The position numbers and the translations under genes were made by a program. The notes beneath the pieces were generated by a model. It was given only the letters and a program-made list of their open reading frames with translations, was not told where the DNA came from and searched no databases. Below are positions 5,554 through 64,000 of a DNA stretch of 64,000 bases, in pieces. This DNA is from an uncultured bacterium (GTDB lineage Bacteria > Margulisbacteria > WOR-1 > CAVSGV01), in the NCBI GenBank assembly GCA_963727815.1, contig CAVSGV010000006.1:28541-92540 (forward strand), given 5' to 3'. Position 1 is the first letter of the stretch. Each line of letters starts with the position of its first letter.

Positions 5554-5619
5554 GTCACTCTGAGCGAAGCGAAGAGTCTGTGTTTGATAAGGCAGATGCT
5601 TCGCGCTGCTCAGCATGAC
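5554..5619. repeat. REP-like inverted-repeat element, copy 1
   Basis: Arm gtcactctgagcgaagcgaagagtctg (5554-5580) and imperfect reverse-complement arm cagatgcttcgcgctgctcagcatgac (5593-5619). It lies between the arsC start and the phoU stop. Confidence 0.85.
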
Positions 5620-25802: not shown

Positions 25803-25891
25803 GTCACCCTGAACGAAGTGAAGGGTCTGAATTTAAAATGCAGATTCTTCGCTTCGCTCAGAATGACAAGAGCCGAAGGGCTCAGGATGAC
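25803..25891. repeat. REP-like inverted-repeat element, copy 2 (three arms)
   Basis: Arms gtcaccctgaacgaagtgaagggtctg (25803-25829), cagattcttcgcttcgctcagaatgac (25841-25867) and agccgaagggctcaggatgac (25871-25891). It lies directly after the phoR stop. Confidence 0.85.
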
Positions 25892-28532: not shown

Positions 28533-28882
28533 GCAACTGCCTGCAAGTCCGATGACATCTCAAGCATGTTCACCCTGATGTAATTCCTGTCGCCGATAAG
28601 CTCGGACCTGTCTATCAGCTTGTACCCGACCGACAATCCGCATCTGCGGCAGAACAGTTCCATGATGTCCGAAGAAAACTTATCATCCTCTCCTCTGACG
28701 TTCGTAACTTTCTTCGGGGAAAAGAATGACGGGCTTTCTATGAGATCAAGATCGTCGTCTGCTGCCGAAAAGATCTCGTTGCCGCAGTAAATGCACTTGA
28801 ATATCCTGCCGCTAACTTTTTGTTCTCCATTTATCAGCATAGAGCAACCTCCTTTCATGCTTACTATTGTTTTCGCGCTCAT
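28529..28882 (-). CDS. small zinc-ribbon protein (two CxxC pairs)
   Basis: CIYCGNEIF ... CRRCGLSVGYKL. The spacing is reminiscent of MsrB/yippee-type beta-tent zinc sites. 4-nt overlap with the flavodoxin gene. Confidence 0.35.
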   Translation of the reverse strand: MSAKTIVSMKGGCSMLINGEQKVSGRIFKCIYCGNEIFSAADDDLDLIESPSFFSPKKVTNVRGEDDKFSSDIMELFCRRCGLSVGYKLIDRSELIGDRNYIRVNMLEMSSDLQAVA

Positions 28883-46248: not shown

Positions 46249-46307
46249 GTCATTCTGAGCGAAGCGAAGAATCTGAATTTGAGACCCTTCACTTCGTTCA
46301 GGGTGAC
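46249..46307. repeat. REP-like inverted-repeat element, copy 3
   Basis: gtcattctgagcgaagcgaagaatctg (46249-46275) and agacccttcacttcgttcagggtgac (46282-46307), between convergent gene ends. Confidence 0.85.
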
Positions 46308-47637: not shown

Positions 47638-49095
47638 ATGGAACTCTTCGAGCTTACCGCGCATGAACTTCACGCAAAACTATCCAAGAGGGAGACATCC
47701 GTTGAAGAGATACTTAAGTCCGTCATCGGCAGGATAACCGCGACTGAAGACAGGATATCCGCCTTCATGACCATCAACCTTGAGGACGCTCTTAACCGCG
47801 CGATAGAGATAGACGAGCAGATAGCAGCCGGAAAAGAGATTACTCCGCTTACCGGGATACCGGTCGCCGTAAAGGACAACATGTGCACGAAAGGGCTTCT
47901 CACCACCTGTTCCTCGAAGATACTCAGGAATTATATCCCGCCTTACAACGCCACGGTGGTTGATAAGATCATTCAGGCGGGAGCGATACCCATCGGAAAA
48001 ACGAACCTGGATGAATTCGCGATGGGCTCATCCACCGAAAATTCGGCTTACAAGGTGACGAAGAATCCTTGGGACCTTAAGAGAGTGCCCGGCGGTTCCT
48101 CAGGCGGTTCGGCCGCTTCAGTTGCCGCCGATGAAACCGTGATGGCGTTCGGCTCCGACACGGGCGGATCGATAAGACAGCCTGCTTCGCTTTGCGGCGT
48201 CGTCGGGCTTAAGCCGACATACGGAAGGGTTTCAAGATATGGGCTGATAGCGTTCGCTTCATCGCTGGACCAGATAGGCCCGCTTACGAAGGACGTGACG
48301 GATGCCGCGATATTCATGAACTGCATAGCCGGACACGACAAGAAAGATTCCACGTCTGTTGATGTCCCCGTTCCAGATCACCGCAAGTCTTTAGTCGATG
48401 ACGTCAAAGGTTTGAAGGTAGGTTTGATAAAGGATCTGCTTGGCGAAGGGATAGACGCCGGAGTGAAAAAAGCTGTGCTCGACGCAGCCGACAAGTTGAG
48501 AGAGCTTGGCGCGAAAGTGGAGGAAGTATCGATGCCCGCGCTGGAGTACGGCATCTCTACATATTATATACTCGCGACGGCGGAGGCTTCATCTAACCTG
48601 GAGCGTTATGACGGCGTGAAGTACGGCCACCGCTCTGAAGAGGCGGACGATCTTTTGTCGATGTATTACAACACGAGGCGCGAAGGGTTTGGGCCGGAAG
48701 TTAAGCGCAGGATAATGCTGGGGACGTACGCGCTCTCCGCTGGCTACTATGACGCGTATTATTTAAAGGCCCAGAAGGTCAGGACGCTGATAAAGAACGA
48801 CTTTGACAAAGCCTTTTCAAAGTTCGACATACTGATCTCCCCCACTTCGCCCAGCGTCGCGTTCAAGATCGGCGAAAAGATGAACGATCCGCTTTCGATG
48901 TATCTGTCCGACATTGCGACGATACCGGTCAACCTGGCGGGCATTCCGGCGATATCGATCCCATGCGGCTTCGTCAACGGCCTGCCCGTCGGACTGCAGA
49001 TAATGGGCAAGGCTTTCAGCGAGGAAACTCTTTTCAGGGCGGCGTTCACCTATGAGCAGAACACGGCGTGGCACAAGTCGAGGCCGAAGTTATAG
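47638..49095 (+). CDS. gatA: Asp/Glu-tRNA amidotransferase subunit A
   Basis: Amidase signature [13 protein letters not shown], with the catalytic Ser/Lys context conserved. 485 aa. Confidence 0.95.
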
Positions 49096-49153
49096 TCACC
49101 CTGAACGAAGTGAAGGGTCTGAATTTCAGATTCTTCGCTTCGCTCAGAATGAC
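49095..49153. repeat. REP-like inverted-repeat element, copy 4
   Basis: gtcaccctgaacgaagtgaagggtctg (49095-49121) and cagattcttcgcttcgctcagaatgac (49127-49153), filling the gatA-gatB spacer. Confidence 0.85.
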
Positions 49154-49164
49154 GAAAGGATCAT

Positions 49165-54113: not shown

Positions 54114-54242
54114 GTCACCCTGAGCCCTTCGCATTGTGTCATTCTGAGCGAAGCGAAGAATCTGTATTTTGCTCAGGGTAAACTCCGTGAAGGGTCTGTG
54201 TTCTAAAAATGCAGATTCTTCGGCCTTTGGCCTCAGAATGAC
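54114..54242. repeat. REP-like element cluster, copy 5 (four arms)
   Basis: gtcaccctgagcccttcgc..., gtcattctgagcgaagcgaagaatctg, ...ctccgtgaagggtctg and cagattcttcggcctttggcctcagaatgac. Confidence 0.85.
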
Positions 54243-59079: not shown

Positions 59080-60021
59080 GTGGCTGAATTGGCAAAAAAG
59101 GTTTCAGTTTTCGGCGCGGGCAACGTCGGCGCCGAGGTCGCAAGAAGGATCATCGAAAAGAAGCTCGCTGATGTCGTGCTTGTCGATATTGTCGAGGGGA
59201 TCCCTCAGGGAAAAGCGCTCGACATGCTGCAGTCCGGCCCCGTGGAAGGTTTTGATAATTCGATCATCGGCACGAACGATCCGTCATTGATAAAAGGTTC
59301 TGACGTCGTCGTCGTCACCGCCGGCCTTGCCAGAAAACCCGGAATGAGCAGGGACGATCTTCAGGCGATGAACGCGAAGATAATCAAGGGCATAACCGAG
59401 AACATTAGGGATTTTTCTCCGGATTCGATGATCATCATGGTCACAAATCCTCTTGATGTCATGACGTATCTGGCCTGGAAAGTCAGCGGATTTGACAGGA
59501 AAAAAGTTTTCGGGATGGCCGGGGAGCTGGATACCGCAAGGATGATAGCTTTTATCTCGATGGAGCTGAAGGTCCCCGCATCAAAGATAAAAGCCATGGT
59601 CCTTGGAGGACATGGTGATCTGATGGTCCCTCTCGCCAGCCAGACTAGCGTGAACGGGAAACCTCTCTCTCAATTAATGACAAAAGAAAAGATACAGGAA
59701 TTGATAACTAGGACCGCCAACGGCGGCGCCGAGATAGTAAATCTTCTCAAGACCGGCAGCGCCTATTACGCGCCTTCGGCTTCGGCGGTGAAAATGGTGG
59801 AAGCTGTTATCAGGAACACCGGCATGATCATTCCAAGCGCAGTGATACTCGATGGCGAATACGGATTGAAAGATGTCTGCATCGGAGTGCCGGCCAGGAT
59901 AGGAAAGAACGGCGTTGAAAAAGTCATCGAGCTGAAACTCCCCGACGAAGACAGGCTGATGCTTGAAAGGTCCGCGAACTCGGTAAAAGAGAATATCGCG
60001 AAGCTAATGGTGTCACCCTGA
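59080..60021 (+). CDS. mdh: malate dehydrogenase (LDH-like MDH)
   Basis: VFGAGNVGA Rossmann motif, MVTNPLDVMTY and GGHGDLMVPL. A TTG at 59089 behind GAGGTGG is an alternative start. The last codons and the stop lie inside REP copy 6. Confidence 0.9.
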   Translation: MAELAKKVSVFGAGNVGAEVARRIIEKKLADVVLVDIVEGIPQGKALDMLQSGPVEGFDNSIIGTNDPSLIKGSDVVVVTAGLARKPGMSRDDLQAMNAKIIKGITENIRDFSPDSMIIMVTNPLDVMTYLAWKVSGFDRKKVFGMAGELDTARMIAFISMELKVPASKIKAMVLGGHGDLMVPLASQTSVNGKPLSQLMTKEKIQELITRTANGGAEIVNLLKTGSAYYAPSASAVKMVEAVIRNTGMIIPSAVILDGEYGLKDVCIGVPARIGKNGVEKVIELKLPDEDRLMLERSANSVKENIAKLMVSP

Positions 60022-60078
60022 GCGTAGCGAAGGGTCTGTATTTTAAAAATGCAGATTCTTCACTTCGTTCAGAATGAC
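60012..60078. repeat. REP-like inverted-repeat element, copy 6
   Basis: gtcaccctgagcgtagcgaagggtctg (60012-60038) and cagattcttcacttcgttcagaatgac (60052-60078). Confidence 0.85.
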
Positions 60079-60089
60079 AAAAGGAAACT

Positions 60090-61481: not shown

Positions 61482-62456
61482 ATGTCAAAACCCAAAATCC
61501 AAAATCCAAATAAATCAAAGCAAATATCCAAATATTTTATTATTTTGATTTTGACATTAATTTGTCATTTGTCATTTGTAATTTGGAATTACTCTTTTGC
61601 TTCAGCAAAAGAGTACGACGGTGCCTGGTTCCTCGGCTTCAATGAGAAAACGCAGTTGTTCGGCGATGAGAACAGCAAGGTAGTCCGTCAGGCCGTCACA
61701 ATTGCCATCGACAGGGACAAAATTGCGAAAAAAATAGTGGGCGATGATACCGTCCCGGCCGGGATCATTCCTCCCGGCATGGAGGGTTATGATCCTTCGC
61801 TTTCCGCGTATCCACACGATATCGGGCTGGCAAAAAAAATGATGAGATCGTCCGGCTATTCCCTGAGCGATAAAAGGCTGAAACATATTTCGTTGCTCAT
61901 GACGGATGGCGTAAAGACAAAACTGATAGTCGATGAGATAAAAATGGACCTCATCAATCTGGGATTCGACATCACGACCACTACCGTGAAATATTCGAAT
62001 ACCACCGCCTGGCAGAAGGCGCTGACATCGGGCAGGTATGACATGTTCGTCATGGGATACAAGGCCGGGGACGTGGGAGAAATATTCATAGCCGACAAGT
62101 CCACCGGGCTGTTCCACACTTTCAACTGCTTCAAGAACTCCACGAACGAAGCCGATCAGGCGTTCTTTGACAGGTATGAAGACGCGGTAAAAGCGGGTTT
62201 TTCGCCCGATCCCGTCTGCAACCCGCAGCCTGAAAAAGAGCCGAAGACCCTGGACCTGCTGAGGCCGCTTTTCTATACAAAAGAAGACGCGAACGTATCT
62301 AATTTCAGCGAAAAGAGAGTGGACATCCTCCTTGAGGAGCTCTCCACCACCGATGAAAAGCTAATCGCCACAAGGAAAGACAAGTTCGAAGAGATAGGAA
62401 GGATAATTCTTGAGGAATGCCCCGTGGTTCCTCTTTTTTACATCACCAGGCTATGA
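61482..62456 (+). CDS. family-5 ABC substrate-binding-protein-like protein lacking the usual N-terminal lobe
   Basis: VRQAVTIAIDRDKIAKKIVGD.TVPAGIIPPGMEGYDP...AKKMMRSSGY resembles the middle and C-terminal parts of peptide/nickel SBPs. ATG at 61482 follows AGGAGGAAGG. The N-terminal 40 codons are low-complexity repeat DNA. Confidence 0.5.
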   Translation: MSKPKIQNPNKSKQISKYFIILILTLICHLSFVIWNYSFASAKEYDGAWFLGFNEKTQLFGDENSKVVRQAVTIAIDRDKIAKKIVGDDTVPAGIIPPGMEGYDPSLSAYPHDIGLAKKMMRSSGYSLSDKRLKHISLLMTDGVKTKLIVDEIKMDLINLGFDITTTTVKYSNTTAWQKALTSGRYDMFVMGYKAGDVGEIFIADKSTGLFHTFNCFKNSTNEADQAFFDRYEDAVKAGFSPDPVCNPQPEKEPKTLDLLRPLFYTKEDANVSNFSEKRVDILLEELSTTDEKLIATRKDKFEEIGRIILEECPVVPLFYITRL

Positions 62457-62677
62457 ACCAGATCGACCAATATTTTAAAGTAAAAAAAACGGAAGTTTCC
62501 TTCATCTGCACATACATGGAAGCTTTCGAAGGTATGGCGGCCGTACGGACCCCGGACCCGAAATACGGCGACGATGCCGTGCTTCACTTCATGGTATCGC
62601 CCGATTTTATCGGACAGTTCGATGAACTTATCGGCGTGCTTCAGAAAGACATCCCGATGGAAAAGGTCGAGCCTTGA
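62453..62677 (+). CDS. small conserved-looking hypothetical protein (74 aa)
   Basis: MNQIDQYFKVKKTEVSFICTYMEAFEGMAAVRT.... ATGA overlap with the upstream stop and a 4-nt overlap with the HAD gene. Confidence 0.4.
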   Translation: MNQIDQYFKVKKTEVSFICTYMEAFEGMAAVRTPDPKYGDDAVLHFMVSPDFIGQFDELIGVLQKDIPMEKVEP

Positions 62678-63174
62678 ACATATTCTATCCCAATGAACAC
62701 AAGAGGACCGTTCAGGACATCGACCTCGTGAAACTCAAGTCGATGGGGATCATCAACCTTATCGTGGACCTGGATGAGACCCTAAGAAAAAGGAACGCGG
62801 ACTTCATTCCGGAATCATCGGTGAACTGGCTTCACAGCGTCCGGAACAGCGGTTTCAAAGTATGCATCACATCCAATAATCCGTTCAGCTGGAAGCTTAA
62901 GGAGATCGAAAAGCGGCTCGGCGTTCCGGTAAGTCTTCTCGCATTGAAACCCTTGCCTCTCGCCTTCCATCACGCGATGAAACTATTGGGGTCAAATAAG
63001 TCGAATACCGCTTTCATCGGCGACCAGCTCTTTACCGATATCATGGGAGCGAATATTGTCGGGCTGTATTCGATACTCGTCGACCCGATAACTGGAGCGG
63101 AAAAAGGGATCTTCAGGCGGATGATGCGCTGGCTGGAAGAGAGGATATTCCCGAGGGTCAACCTCGATCTTTAG
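62674..63174 (+). CDS. YqeG-type HAD-IIIA phosphatase
   Basis: HAD motif I VDLDETL, motif II ITSNN and motif III/IV GDQLFTDIMGAN. 166 aa. Confidence 0.75.
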   Translation: MNIFYPNEHKRTVQDIDLVKLKSMGIINLIVDLDETLRKRNADFIPESSVNWLHSVRNSGFKVCITSNNPFSWKLKEIEKRLGVPVSLLALKPLPLAFHHAMKLLGSNKSNTAFIGDQLFTDIMGANIVGLYSILVDPITGAEKGIFRRMMRWLEERIFPRVNLDL

Positions 63175-63176
63175 TT

Positions 63177-63272
63177 GTCATTCTGAGAGAGCAAAGCGAA
63201 CGAAGAATCTGACTTTGCAAAACGATGCACCAAAGTTGTCATTCTGAGGGAGTAAAACGACCGAAGAATCTG
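63177..63272. repeat. REP-like arms, copies 7a and 7b (direct orientation)
   Basis: gtcattctgagagagcaaagcgaacgaagaatctg (63177-63211) and gtcattctgagggagtaaaacgaccgaagaatctg (63238-63272). Confidence 0.8.
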
Positions 63273-63284
63273 CCTTCTATATCG

Positions 63285-63563
63285 TCACAATTGATCGCTT
63301 AAGTCGTTCCATTCAGGATTTGATAATTCAATAAGAGCTATTTTCTTTTGCCTGGTCCAGCCTTTTATTTGCTTCTCCCTGACAATTGCATCTCTTGGCA
63401 AATTAAATTCCTCAAGATAGACAAACGTTTTAATATGATACCTGGATGTAAATCCGATATCCCCTGATTTATGTTGTTGGAGTCTTCTGATAATATTGCT
63501 GGTAATACCCGTATACAATGTTCTTGATCTATTCGACATAATATATACATGATATTTTTTCAT
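63285..63563 (-). CDS. GIY-YIG nuclease family protein (92 aa)
   Basis: YHVYIMSNRSRTLYTGITSNIIRRLQQHK...REKQIKGWTRQKK is the canonical small GIY-YIG (UPF0213-like) pattern. Confidence 0.85.
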   Translation of the reverse strand: MKKYHVYIMSNRSRTLYTGITSNIIRRLQQHKSGDIGFTSRYHIKTFVYLEEFNLPRDAIVREKQIKGWTRQKKIALIELSNPEWNDLSDQL

Positions 63564-63568
63564 AAAGG

Positions 63569-63596
63569 CAGACCCTTCGCCTCGGCTCAGGGTGAC
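63569..63596. repeat. REP-like arm, copy 8 (inverted relative to 7a/7b)
   Basis: cagacccttcgcctcggctcagggtgac, on the other side of the GIY-YIG gene. Confidence 0.8.
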
Positions 63597-63605
63597 AACT
63601 GCACG

Positions 63606-64000
63606 TCAGCTCAAACCTTTAAGCGACTGCTTTATTATGTCCTCCGTGCCTTTCACCTTCGTGAAATCTATTCCGGACCTCATTATGGCTTCTCTTGCTT
63701 CTTTGGGAGTGTAGCCGAGCGTCATGAGCGCCTCTATCGCGTCTGAAATTATCGGCTCCTCGGTAGGCAGCCCCTTCTTGCTTTCTCCGGTGGATATCGC
63801 GTAAGCCTTGCCCACTTTTTCCTTGAGCTCGATGACAAGCTTCTGCGCGGTCTTGAGGCCGATGCCGGGAACCGTGGTGATGAGGTCGATGCTCCCTTTT
63901 GCTATGGCGATGACAAGGTCCTCCATTTTTATGCCGGAGAGAAGTCCGATGGCGCTCTTGGGGCCGATGCCGGAAACGGAAAGGAGCATCGAGAACAATC
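63606..64000 (-). CDS. ruvA: Holliday junction DNA helicase RuvA, C-terminal two-thirds (5' end beyond the window)
   Basis: HhH motifs SVSGIGPKSAIGLLS and VPGIGLKTAQKLVIELK, plus C-terminal domain III ALMTLGYTPKEAREAI. Confidence 0.9.
   Translation of the reverse strand, partial: LFSMLLSVSGIGPKSAIGLLSGIKMEDLVIAIAKGSIDLITTVPGIGLKTAQKLVIELKEKVGKAYAISTGESKKGLPTEEPIISDAIEALMTLGYTPKEAREAIMRSGIDFTKVKGTEDIIKQSLKGLS

Follow-up and report, generated by a model that had tools for sequence, protein, structure and literature searches.

The closest described relatives of the locus treated here are the Ssn nucleases and their hairpin repeats. Chenal et al. (2025, Nat Commun 16:2388, PMC11893778) characterised SsnA (NMV_0044) of Neisseria meningitidis, a 94-residue single-domain GIY-YIG protein (cd10448) that binds the hairpin repeat NTS (CGTCATTCCCGCGMAVGCGGGAATCYRG) only as single-stranded DNA (ssDNA) and cuts a few nucleotides upstream of it. 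Cleavage depends on the three bases that precede the palindrome and binding on the C that follows it, and the substitutions Y6A, Y17A, and E64A abolish cutting (PMC11893778). Three further SsnA homologs cut their own repeat variants, 71% of the homologs have a flanking repeat, and 42% have repeats on both sides; in N. meningitidis, Ssn has an in vivo effect on transformation (PMC11893778). The same paper likened the NTS-ssnA-NTS layout to insertion sequences (IS) and to the RAYT/REP/BIME relationship of repetitive extragenic palindromic (REP) sequences. The association of GIY-YIG nucleases with REP-like repeats is thus already in print, and beyond Chenal et al. our literature search found no other paper linking the two. 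Here we describe a comparable locus, a ~430-nt cassette made of a small GIY-YIG nuclease gene (ssn) and three hairpin arms, in a 64,000-nt stretch of DNA (the window; positions 28,541 to 92,540 of contig CAVSGV010000006.1, assembly GCA_963727815.1) from an uncultured bacterium of the WOR-1 lineage.

The nuclease and its three arms

Judged from its sequence, the locus is very probably a member of the Ssn/SRM systems, with a 92-residue Ssn-family nuclease and three arms as its cognate repeats (SRM), because the protein is 47% identical to an SsnA ortholog, the catalytic residues align, and the arms follow the order GTC, palindrome, C. The Pfam GIY-YIG model (PF01541) matches residues 3-74 (E=3.8e-14), with no further domain; no NCBIfam model matches the protein, and its only sequence relative in the PDB is the distant UPF0213 protein 1ZG2 (E=7.9e-5). 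The homology criterion of Chenal et al. is E<1e-10 (PMC11893778); our comparison used the Neisseria gonorrhoeae ortholog and not the N. meningitidis protein, and gave E=5e-23 over residues 6-88 in the pairwise alignment and E=8e-14 in a tblastn search of a 7.3-Gb collection. The residues Y7, Y17, and E63 of the window protein align with Y6, Y17, and E64 of SsnA and are invariant or nearly so in an alignment of 31 homologs. The N. gonorrhoeae ssnA locus consists of a 94-codon frame with Tyr6, Tyr17, and Glu64, surrounded by ten NTS copies, some of them perfect; the frame starts at ATT, with no in-frame ATG near the start. The two N. gonorrhoeae records in PLSDB, NZ_CP119142.1 and NZ_CP119140.1, contain one match each to the window protein; they are filed as plasmids and, at 2.17 Mb, are evidently chromosomes.

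The gap between the HAD phosphatase gene and ruvA measures 431 nt and holds two forward arms, the GIY-YIG gene, and one reverse arm. The initial annotation had placed the gene between these arms with only 12 and 5 nt to spare (63273-63284 and 63564-63568), and all of its coordinates were confirmed. The arm coordinates given below are extended beyond the cores by including the conserved AGTT lead.

62674-63174, plus strand: HAD-type phosphatase gene
63157..63173, plus strand: left copy of the duplicated target, GTCAACCTCGATCTTTA, encoding the C-terminus of the HAD phosphatase
63174..63604: whole ~430-nt insert (unit, unit, ssn, unit)
63173..63215 (core 63177-63211), plus strand: distal downstream unit, probable SRM, T-type
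63234..63276 (core 63238-63272), plus strand: proximal downstream unit, probable SRM, T-type stem ATTCT/AGAAT
63285..63563, minus strand: ssn gene, 92-residue single-domain GIY-YIG nuclease, probable Ssn family
63565..63600 (core 63569-63596), minus strand: upstream unit, probable SRM, C-type stem ACCCT/AGGGT, reading AGTTGTCACCCTGAGCCGAGGCGAAGGGTCTGCC
63605..63621, plus strand: right copy of the duplicated target, GTCAGCTCAAACCTTTA, encoding the C-terminus and stop of RuvA on the minus strand
63606 onward, minus strand: 3' part of ruvA

Read on the ssn strand, the cassette runs C-type unit >, ssn >, < T-type unit, < T-type unit. The upstream unit lies forward and ends 5 nt before the ATG; its predicted fold consists of a 5-bp stem, a GA/GA step, and an inner GC stem, and its C-type stem recurs in 19 other genomic units. 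The proximal downstream unit is reversed relative to ssn, lies 12 nt after the stop codon, and has an inner loop that exceeds the consensus length. The distal unit, 73 nt downstream of ssn, is a tandem copy of the proximal one (88% identity over 43 nt), and it contributes the AG of the TAG stop that ends the HAD gene. No sigma-70-like promoter was found within the cassette. Given this and the position of ssn immediately after ruvA, in the same orientation, read-through from ruvA is the probable source of ssn expression.

The genome holds a single ssn of this subfamily. Four other small GIY-YIG genes lie outside the window (C3:255521-255769, C3:349792-350100, C3:350158-350418, and C6:630103-630348, where C designates contigs of this genome and window coordinates equal those of C6 minus 28540). 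They encode proteins of 81-112 residues from a different subfamily (35-45% identity) and have no GTCA arms. These genes adjoin tRNA-Leu, tRNA-Asn, and tRNA-Gln, and partial tRNA copies with GC-rich hairpin interruptions bracket them.

Association of nuclease and units across genomes

Homologs of the window protein number in the hundreds at 45-70% identity, many of them on very short contigs. A scan of one genome per species returned more than 590 places, from which we took 80 loci (L010-L089) in more than 12 phyla; the 74 loci with full flanks were used for the flank counts. A strict, structure-based detector found 6.07 units/kb at up to 150 nt from the gene and 0.15/kb elsewhere in the 80 loci, and a relaxed detector found 7.07 units/kb near the gene against 0.91/kb in the non-coding DNA of the same loci. 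The enrichment beside ssn homologs is 7.8-fold over the non-coding background and 40-fold over the whole locus. At least one flank carries a unit within 150 nt at 70 of the 74 loci and both flanks do so at 45, with unit > gene < unit as the prevailing orientation (39 and 44 against 18 and 24). The initial annotation had tied a GIY-YIG nuclease, in place of a RAYT, to a REP-like family on the proviso that the arrangement was not coincidental. Chance juxtaposition of the gene and the arms is ruled out by the enrichment of units across the homolog loci. The pattern expected of chance, with orthologs that lack arms and units equally dense elsewhere, was not seen; orthologs in many phyla carry arms.

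Comparison of arm variants with the nuclease phylogeny, likewise suggested in the initial annotation, also came out in favour of a link. The stem variant changes state 31 times on the nuclease tree, against 45.4±2.2 changes with shuffled labels (none of 1000 shuffles as low) and 36.8±2.0 when labels were shuffled within host phylum only (4 of 1000 as low as 31). Such tracking of the nuclease tree by the stem variants is consistent with co-evolution and short of proof, because the tree is a quick one built from about 90 residues and shared descent contributes to the signal. Several metagenome homologs carry terminal tails that are translated units, in forward orientation when N-terminal and in reverse when C-terminal. 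At no fewer than 13 of the 80 loci, the ssn frame enters the downstream reversed unit and terminates at the TGA of the ...AATGAC with which that unit ends (offset -24), so that the final codons and the stop of ssn often come from the repeat.

Transposases of the RAYT kind are also present in this genome, where two adjacent Y1_Tnp (PF01797) matches lie at C6:201758-203651, one of them inside a 484-residue frame. The arms might then be ordinary REPs mobilised by this RAYT or IS200-type transposase, with the GIY-YIG gene beside them by accident. We consider this extremely improbable, given that the Y1 genes (C6:201686-203714) are flanked by other repeats, namely an 18-mer tandem array, CCGATA/TATCGG-type hairpins, and a separate hairpin of the form GGAAACCGCGAC...GTCGCAGGTTTCC, and that the GIY-YIG gene and the units go together at 70 of 74 loci across phyla. 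No GTCA units were found in the flanks of the Y1 genes, and on these grounds the sequence indicates that the genome holds two separate hairpin-repeat systems, one of Ssn and one of RAYT type. The 18-mer, CGTACCCGACGCTGGCTC, occurs in five copies beside the Y1 genes (C6:201560-203760).

The unit family and its insertion into gene junctions

The units share the consensus (AGT)TGTCA-yyCT-GA-[short GC stem + loop]-GA-AGrr-TCTG. A search with the 5' core gives about 55 copies in the 1.68-Mb genome, and the pattern GTCAYYCYGAN{5,25}GARRRRTC gives 46 matches, against 0 for the reversed-pattern control; the reading GTC-A-stem...stem-T-C holds in all three arms and in these 46 units. We also collected 102 anchored candidates, found by both conserved flanks with no demand for complementarity and thus including chance matches. 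Fully complementary stem 4-mers are present in 48 of them, where shuffled partners lead one to expect 8.6 complementary pairs, and the 48 fall into just five variants: TTCT/AGAA (20), CCCT/AGGG (19), TGCT/AGCA (5), CTCT/AGAG (3), and TCCT/AGGA (1). About two hybrid units occur among the anchored units. The small number of variants and the large excess of complementary pairs over the shuffled expectation indicate that compensatory changes have preserved the unit as a hairpin. A permissive Rfam scan of positions 62000-64000 gave no family for the units; a magnesium-riboswitch match in that scan was sub-threshold and was taken as chance.

Apart from the cassette, the genome contains 23 gene-less convergent doublets of units, with AT-rich spacers of 8-15 nt. 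All except one (22/23) are heterotypic, pairing a C-starting stem with a T-starting stem (P=2.9e-6 under random pairing), as the cassette does. At the cassette edge, the upstream unit is followed by TCTGCCTTTAT, with which the spacer of the doublet at C6:98646 also starts. Folding predicts that a doublet in ssDNA closes into a single long hairpin, whichever strand is taken (-16 to -18 kcal/mol), and the doublet at the gatA-gatB junction is an example (-17.7 kcal/mol, z=-5.9). The idea that heterotypic pairing makes the two strands fold differently (C.A versus G.T) was dropped, both strands giving an equally stable long hairpin. By-eye inspection of the flanks of the 23 doublets revealed no direct repeats that stood out. 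The doublets in the window are as follows.

5555..5618: probable SRM doublet
25804-25866: probable SRM doublet
46250-46306: probable SRM doublet
49096..49152: heterotypic gene-less probable SRM doublet (CCCT> <TTCT), gatA-gatB junction
54139-54241: probable SRM doublet
60013..60077: heterotypic gene-less probable SRM doublet, mdh/fumarase junction

Clusters of three to four units occur at positions 54114-54241 of the window and at C1:155912-156010, C3:10915-11034, and C6:637778-637904 of the genome. Between their units they hold an extra conserved module, GCTCAGGACAGGCTCCGCGAAG or GCTCAGGGTAAACTCCGTGAAGG, which resembles a degenerate third unit.

The history of the cassette can be read from its absence in relatives. 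The ends of the HAD gene and ruvA overlap or abut, with a gap of 0-80 nt, in all eight relatives compared (same family, order, and class), none of which has the cassette. Both edges of the insert align to one ancestral 17-nt segment, GTCAACYTAGAGCTTTA, located at the HAD/ruvA overlap of the relatives, and the cassette is bracketed by a ~17-nt target duplication (63157-63173 and 63605-63621). The comparison indicates that the cassette was inserted, within this lineage, at the point where the 3' ends of two conserved genes, HAD and ruvA, overlap. The closest ssn (72% identity) was found in a same-order genome, G006, where it lies on a different contig from the HAD/ruvA pair and is flanked by the same unit types as the window cassette. 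This G006 gene (L096, C30:11007-11275) is interrupted close to codon 35 by a stop together with a frame change, which points to either a decaying system or an assembly error. The ssn genes of the other same-class relatives are at most 52% identical, while homologs in other phyla reach 62-70%. Among 41 genomes, units are abundant only in the two with the closest ssn, 46 in this genome (G000) and 15 in G006; the counts elsewhere are 2-6 in three relatives and 0-1 in all others. G002, G003, and G004 have a few units of this type and no cognate ssn. The ssn genes of other relatives come each with their own stem variant, and G035 shows the > gene < < layout again.

Two doublets show the same kind of absence. 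The gatA/gatB doublet is missing in four same-family relatives, where the genes meet in an ATGA stop/start overlap, and in a same-order relative with a short spacer; the mdh/fumarase doublet is missing in 6/6 relatives, four of which have the ATGA overlap, one a short spacer, and one (G002) a different hairpin insert. Both doublets thus sit in an ancestral ATGA overlap, with a duplication of at most 2-3 nt. Since the cassette and two doublets are absent from the same junctions in relatives, the sequences indicate repeated insertion of the unit family in this lineage. At the mdh/fumarase junction, mdh ends inside the unit, which provides its final codons and stop, and AAAGGA lies ahead of the following ATG. 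More generally, at 49093-49164 and 60012-60089 of the window the unit gives a new stop and AAAGGA follows the doublet, 7-8 nt before the downstream ATG; the surviving doublet insertions have therefore rebuilt termination and ribosome-binding signals.

The meaning of the 17-nt duplication is less direct. At the HAD/ruvA junction of G002 (L107), an unrelated ~85-nt two-hairpin element (TTGGAACC...GGTTCCAA and GAGCCGCGACGTTTAGTCGCAGGCTC) carries its own 17-nt direct duplication, GGGTCAACTTAAAGCT. Either this site is therefore a hot spot, or only duplicating insertions survive there. Because an unrelated element at the same overlap also duplicates 17 nt, the duplication may reflect selection keeping both overlapping genes intact and not the chemistry of the element. 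As a general signature of the family it is ruled out by this element and by the two doublets, with their 2-3 nt at most.

The initial annotation had proposed the gene as a candidate autonomous copy or mobilising enzyme; the cassette and two doublets are insertions, and Ssn is a candidate mobiliser of the repeats. In its strong form, which is a sub-case of the Ssn/SRM explanation, the unit-ssn-unit cassette would be an autonomous IS-like element, Ssn its mobilising enzyme, and the doublets its miniature non-autonomous derivatives. Terminal inverted units, the empty site in eight relatives, and the 17-nt flanking duplication would fit such an element, as would the presence of the closest homolog at another locus in G006, the lineage-specific insertion of two doublets, and the heterotypic composition and edge sequence that the doublets share with the cassette. 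The distribution of ssn across phyla is patchy, as in horizontal gene transfer, and an IS-like architecture was noted for the Neisseria locus (PMC11893778). On the other hand, each genome here has a single full copy of ssn; the nuclease acts by hydrolysis, and no strand-transfer or ligation step is known for it; the duplication lengths of cassette and doublets are inconsistent; and the unrelated G002 element has a long duplication at the same site. Decay would equally fit the units without a cognate ssn in G002, G003, and G004 and the 15 units with a disrupted ssn in G006. We regard the autonomous element as possible, with doubt prevailing.

Alternatively, the units could spread by other means, and ssn could be a selfish passenger that homed into a pre-existing doublet. 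The gene does sit exactly where a heterotypic doublet has its spacer, and TCTGCCTTTAT, which follows the upstream unit, matches the spacer of a doublet. Against this, the published cleavage lies 5' of the unit, outside a doublet and not in its spacer (PMC11893778); neither the doublet nor the gene is present at the HAD/ruvA site of the relatives; and no second mobilising enzyme for the units was found, the Y1 genes carrying other hairpins. Homing is accordingly an improbable origin of the cassette.

Proposed mechanism and comparison with known systems

From the homology with four biochemically characterised Ssn enzymes, we infer ssDNA-specific cleavage by the window protein. Its binding would require both single-stranded DNA and an arm folded into a hairpin. 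It would recognise the GTC and the C that flank the palindrome on its 5' and 3' sides, respectively, and would nick the same strand a few nucleotides 5' of GTCA; it would not act on duplex DNA, RNA, or the complementary strand. Because the units are inverted around ssn, the predicted cuts fall on opposite strands, each at one outer edge of the cassette. The gene-less doublets would then represent the composition of the cassette minus the gene, as REPINs relate to a RAYT gene. GIY-YIG nucleases hydrolyse DNA and cannot rejoin it by themselves; any mobility must therefore borrow host functions. That nicking by Ssn disseminates the units via host replication or repair is a plausible route, to which we give slightly less than an even chance.

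Several observations weigh against the reading of the locus as an Ssn/SRM system whose nuclease recognises and spreads the units. The published SRM string, HGTCWYN(0-2)YYVSBRHN(0-5)WNVSBRGN(0-2)RNCYNB (PMC11893778), matches none of the window units and none of the 74 homolog loci, and its 4 matches in the genome compare with 7.6 in shuffles. Run with the same code, the string recovers 7 of the 10 NTS copies of Neisseria, as well as the repeat variant that accompanies ssn in the relative G018. The local units miss the string by exactly two positions, which are the tandem G.A interrupting the stem. Cognate recognition of this GA-interrupted class is therefore extrapolated from the fully paired hairpins of the NTS type. 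Single units, moreover, fold no better than shuffles in a nearest-neighbour DNA model (z=+0.2 to +0.8), because the model gives no credit for tandem G.A pairs and GNA loops; the case for the hairpin thus rests on covariation and not on energy. The long hairpin predicted for a doublet would also bury GTCA. With regard to mobilisation, the single copy of ssn, the hydrolytic enzyme, the short duplications at the two doublets (at most 2-3 nt and not 17), and the 17-nt duplication of the unrelated G002 element count in the same direction. The string comparison indicates that the GA-interrupted units form a repeat subclass outside the published search string; the de novo repeat logo of Chenal et al. 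may include this class.

Ssn may instead serve the host, for example, in trimming incoming or exposed ssDNA as in Neisseria, a possibility toward which we remain somewhat sceptical. A fuller version would make Ssn a domesticated host function with no current mobility, which cuts SRM-bearing ssDNA and modulates recombination, with the arms as targets or autoregulatory elements. The transformation effect in N. meningitidis (PMC11893778) speaks for this version, and so do the single copy of ssn and its co-orientation with the recombination gene ruvA; ComEC and DprA are also encoded in this genome, which is weak evidence, as both are widespread in the control bacteria not known to be competent. 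However, the adjacency of ssn and ruvA is not conserved in relatives, and the cassette and doublets are recent insertions relative to same-family genomes, so that something is spreading the units. Domestication is thus conceivable, and we incline against it.

The most far-reaching version of the Ssn/SRM reading holds that the cassette is an active mobile element, that a hydrolytic GIY-YIG ssDNA nickase drives the spread of cassette and doublets via host replication or repair, and that the GA class marks a branch of its own. We think this combination rather unlikely. If true, it would constitute a third enzymology for the dissemination of bacterial hairpin repeats, after HUH/Y1 and DDE, and Chloroflexota, Acidobacteriota, and other environmental phyla would hold a large unrecognised branch of it, marked by the GA-interrupted class. 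Short of that, the locus adds an Ssn/SRM member, as we take it to be, from an uncultivated lineage, and what is new here is the empty-site evidence, the heterotypic doublets, the repeat subclass outside the string, and the coexistence with a RAYT-type system. The precise-junction evidence for insertion of the SRM-ssn-SRM cassette and the doublets bears on how these repeats spread. As the published string misses the GA-interrupted subclass, surveys that use it undercount Ssn-repeat pairs, each of which is a candidate sequence-specific ssDNA cutting reagent. The Ssn and RAYT-type systems, each with its own hairpins in one small genome, offer a natural comparison.

Compared with the Ssn/SRM systems of Neisseria, the window protein is likewise a single-domain GIY-YIG protein of about 92-94 residues with the same three catalytic residues, and its gene lies between directional hairpin repeats in which GTC precedes the palindrome and C follows it. 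These repeats, too, are dispersed, mostly intergenic, and often in convergent pairs, each homolog having its own variant. In contrast to the continuous 8-bp stem of NTS, the window units consist of 5 bp, a tandem G.A, 2-4 bp, and a GNA-type loop; their copy number is low (about 49 versus hundreds); and the host is an uncultivated free-living lineage instead of a symbiont or pathogen. This member is known from its sequence. The explicit empty-site evidence of cassette insertion is a further difference, such evidence not being reported by Chenal et al.

In the case of the RAYT/REP/REPIN systems of Escherichia coli and Pseudomonas, a single-copy nuclease gene also sits between inverted hairpin repeats, and, as in REPINs and BIMEs, the units here are also dispersed as inverted doublets of two non-identical types. 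The resemblance is one of logic only. The enclosed enzyme is a hydrolytic GIY-YIG protein and not an HUH/Y1 transposase with a covalent intermediate. IS200/IS605 elements share with Ssn the recognition of ends as ssDNA hairpins, and the IS-like layout was pointed out for Neisseria (PMC11893778); however, both of their ends are on one strand and they produce no target duplication, whereas the units of the cassette are inverted and a 17-nt duplication flanks it. GIY-YIG homing endonucleases, such as I-TevI and the Seg proteins, have the same fold and a similarly patchy, selfish-gene-like distribution. Unlike them, the window protein has no separate DNA-binding domain and no intron, intein, or phage context but occupies a chromosomal intergenic position, and, by analogy with characterised Ssn enzymes, its target would be ssDNA hairpins instead of a duplex homing site.

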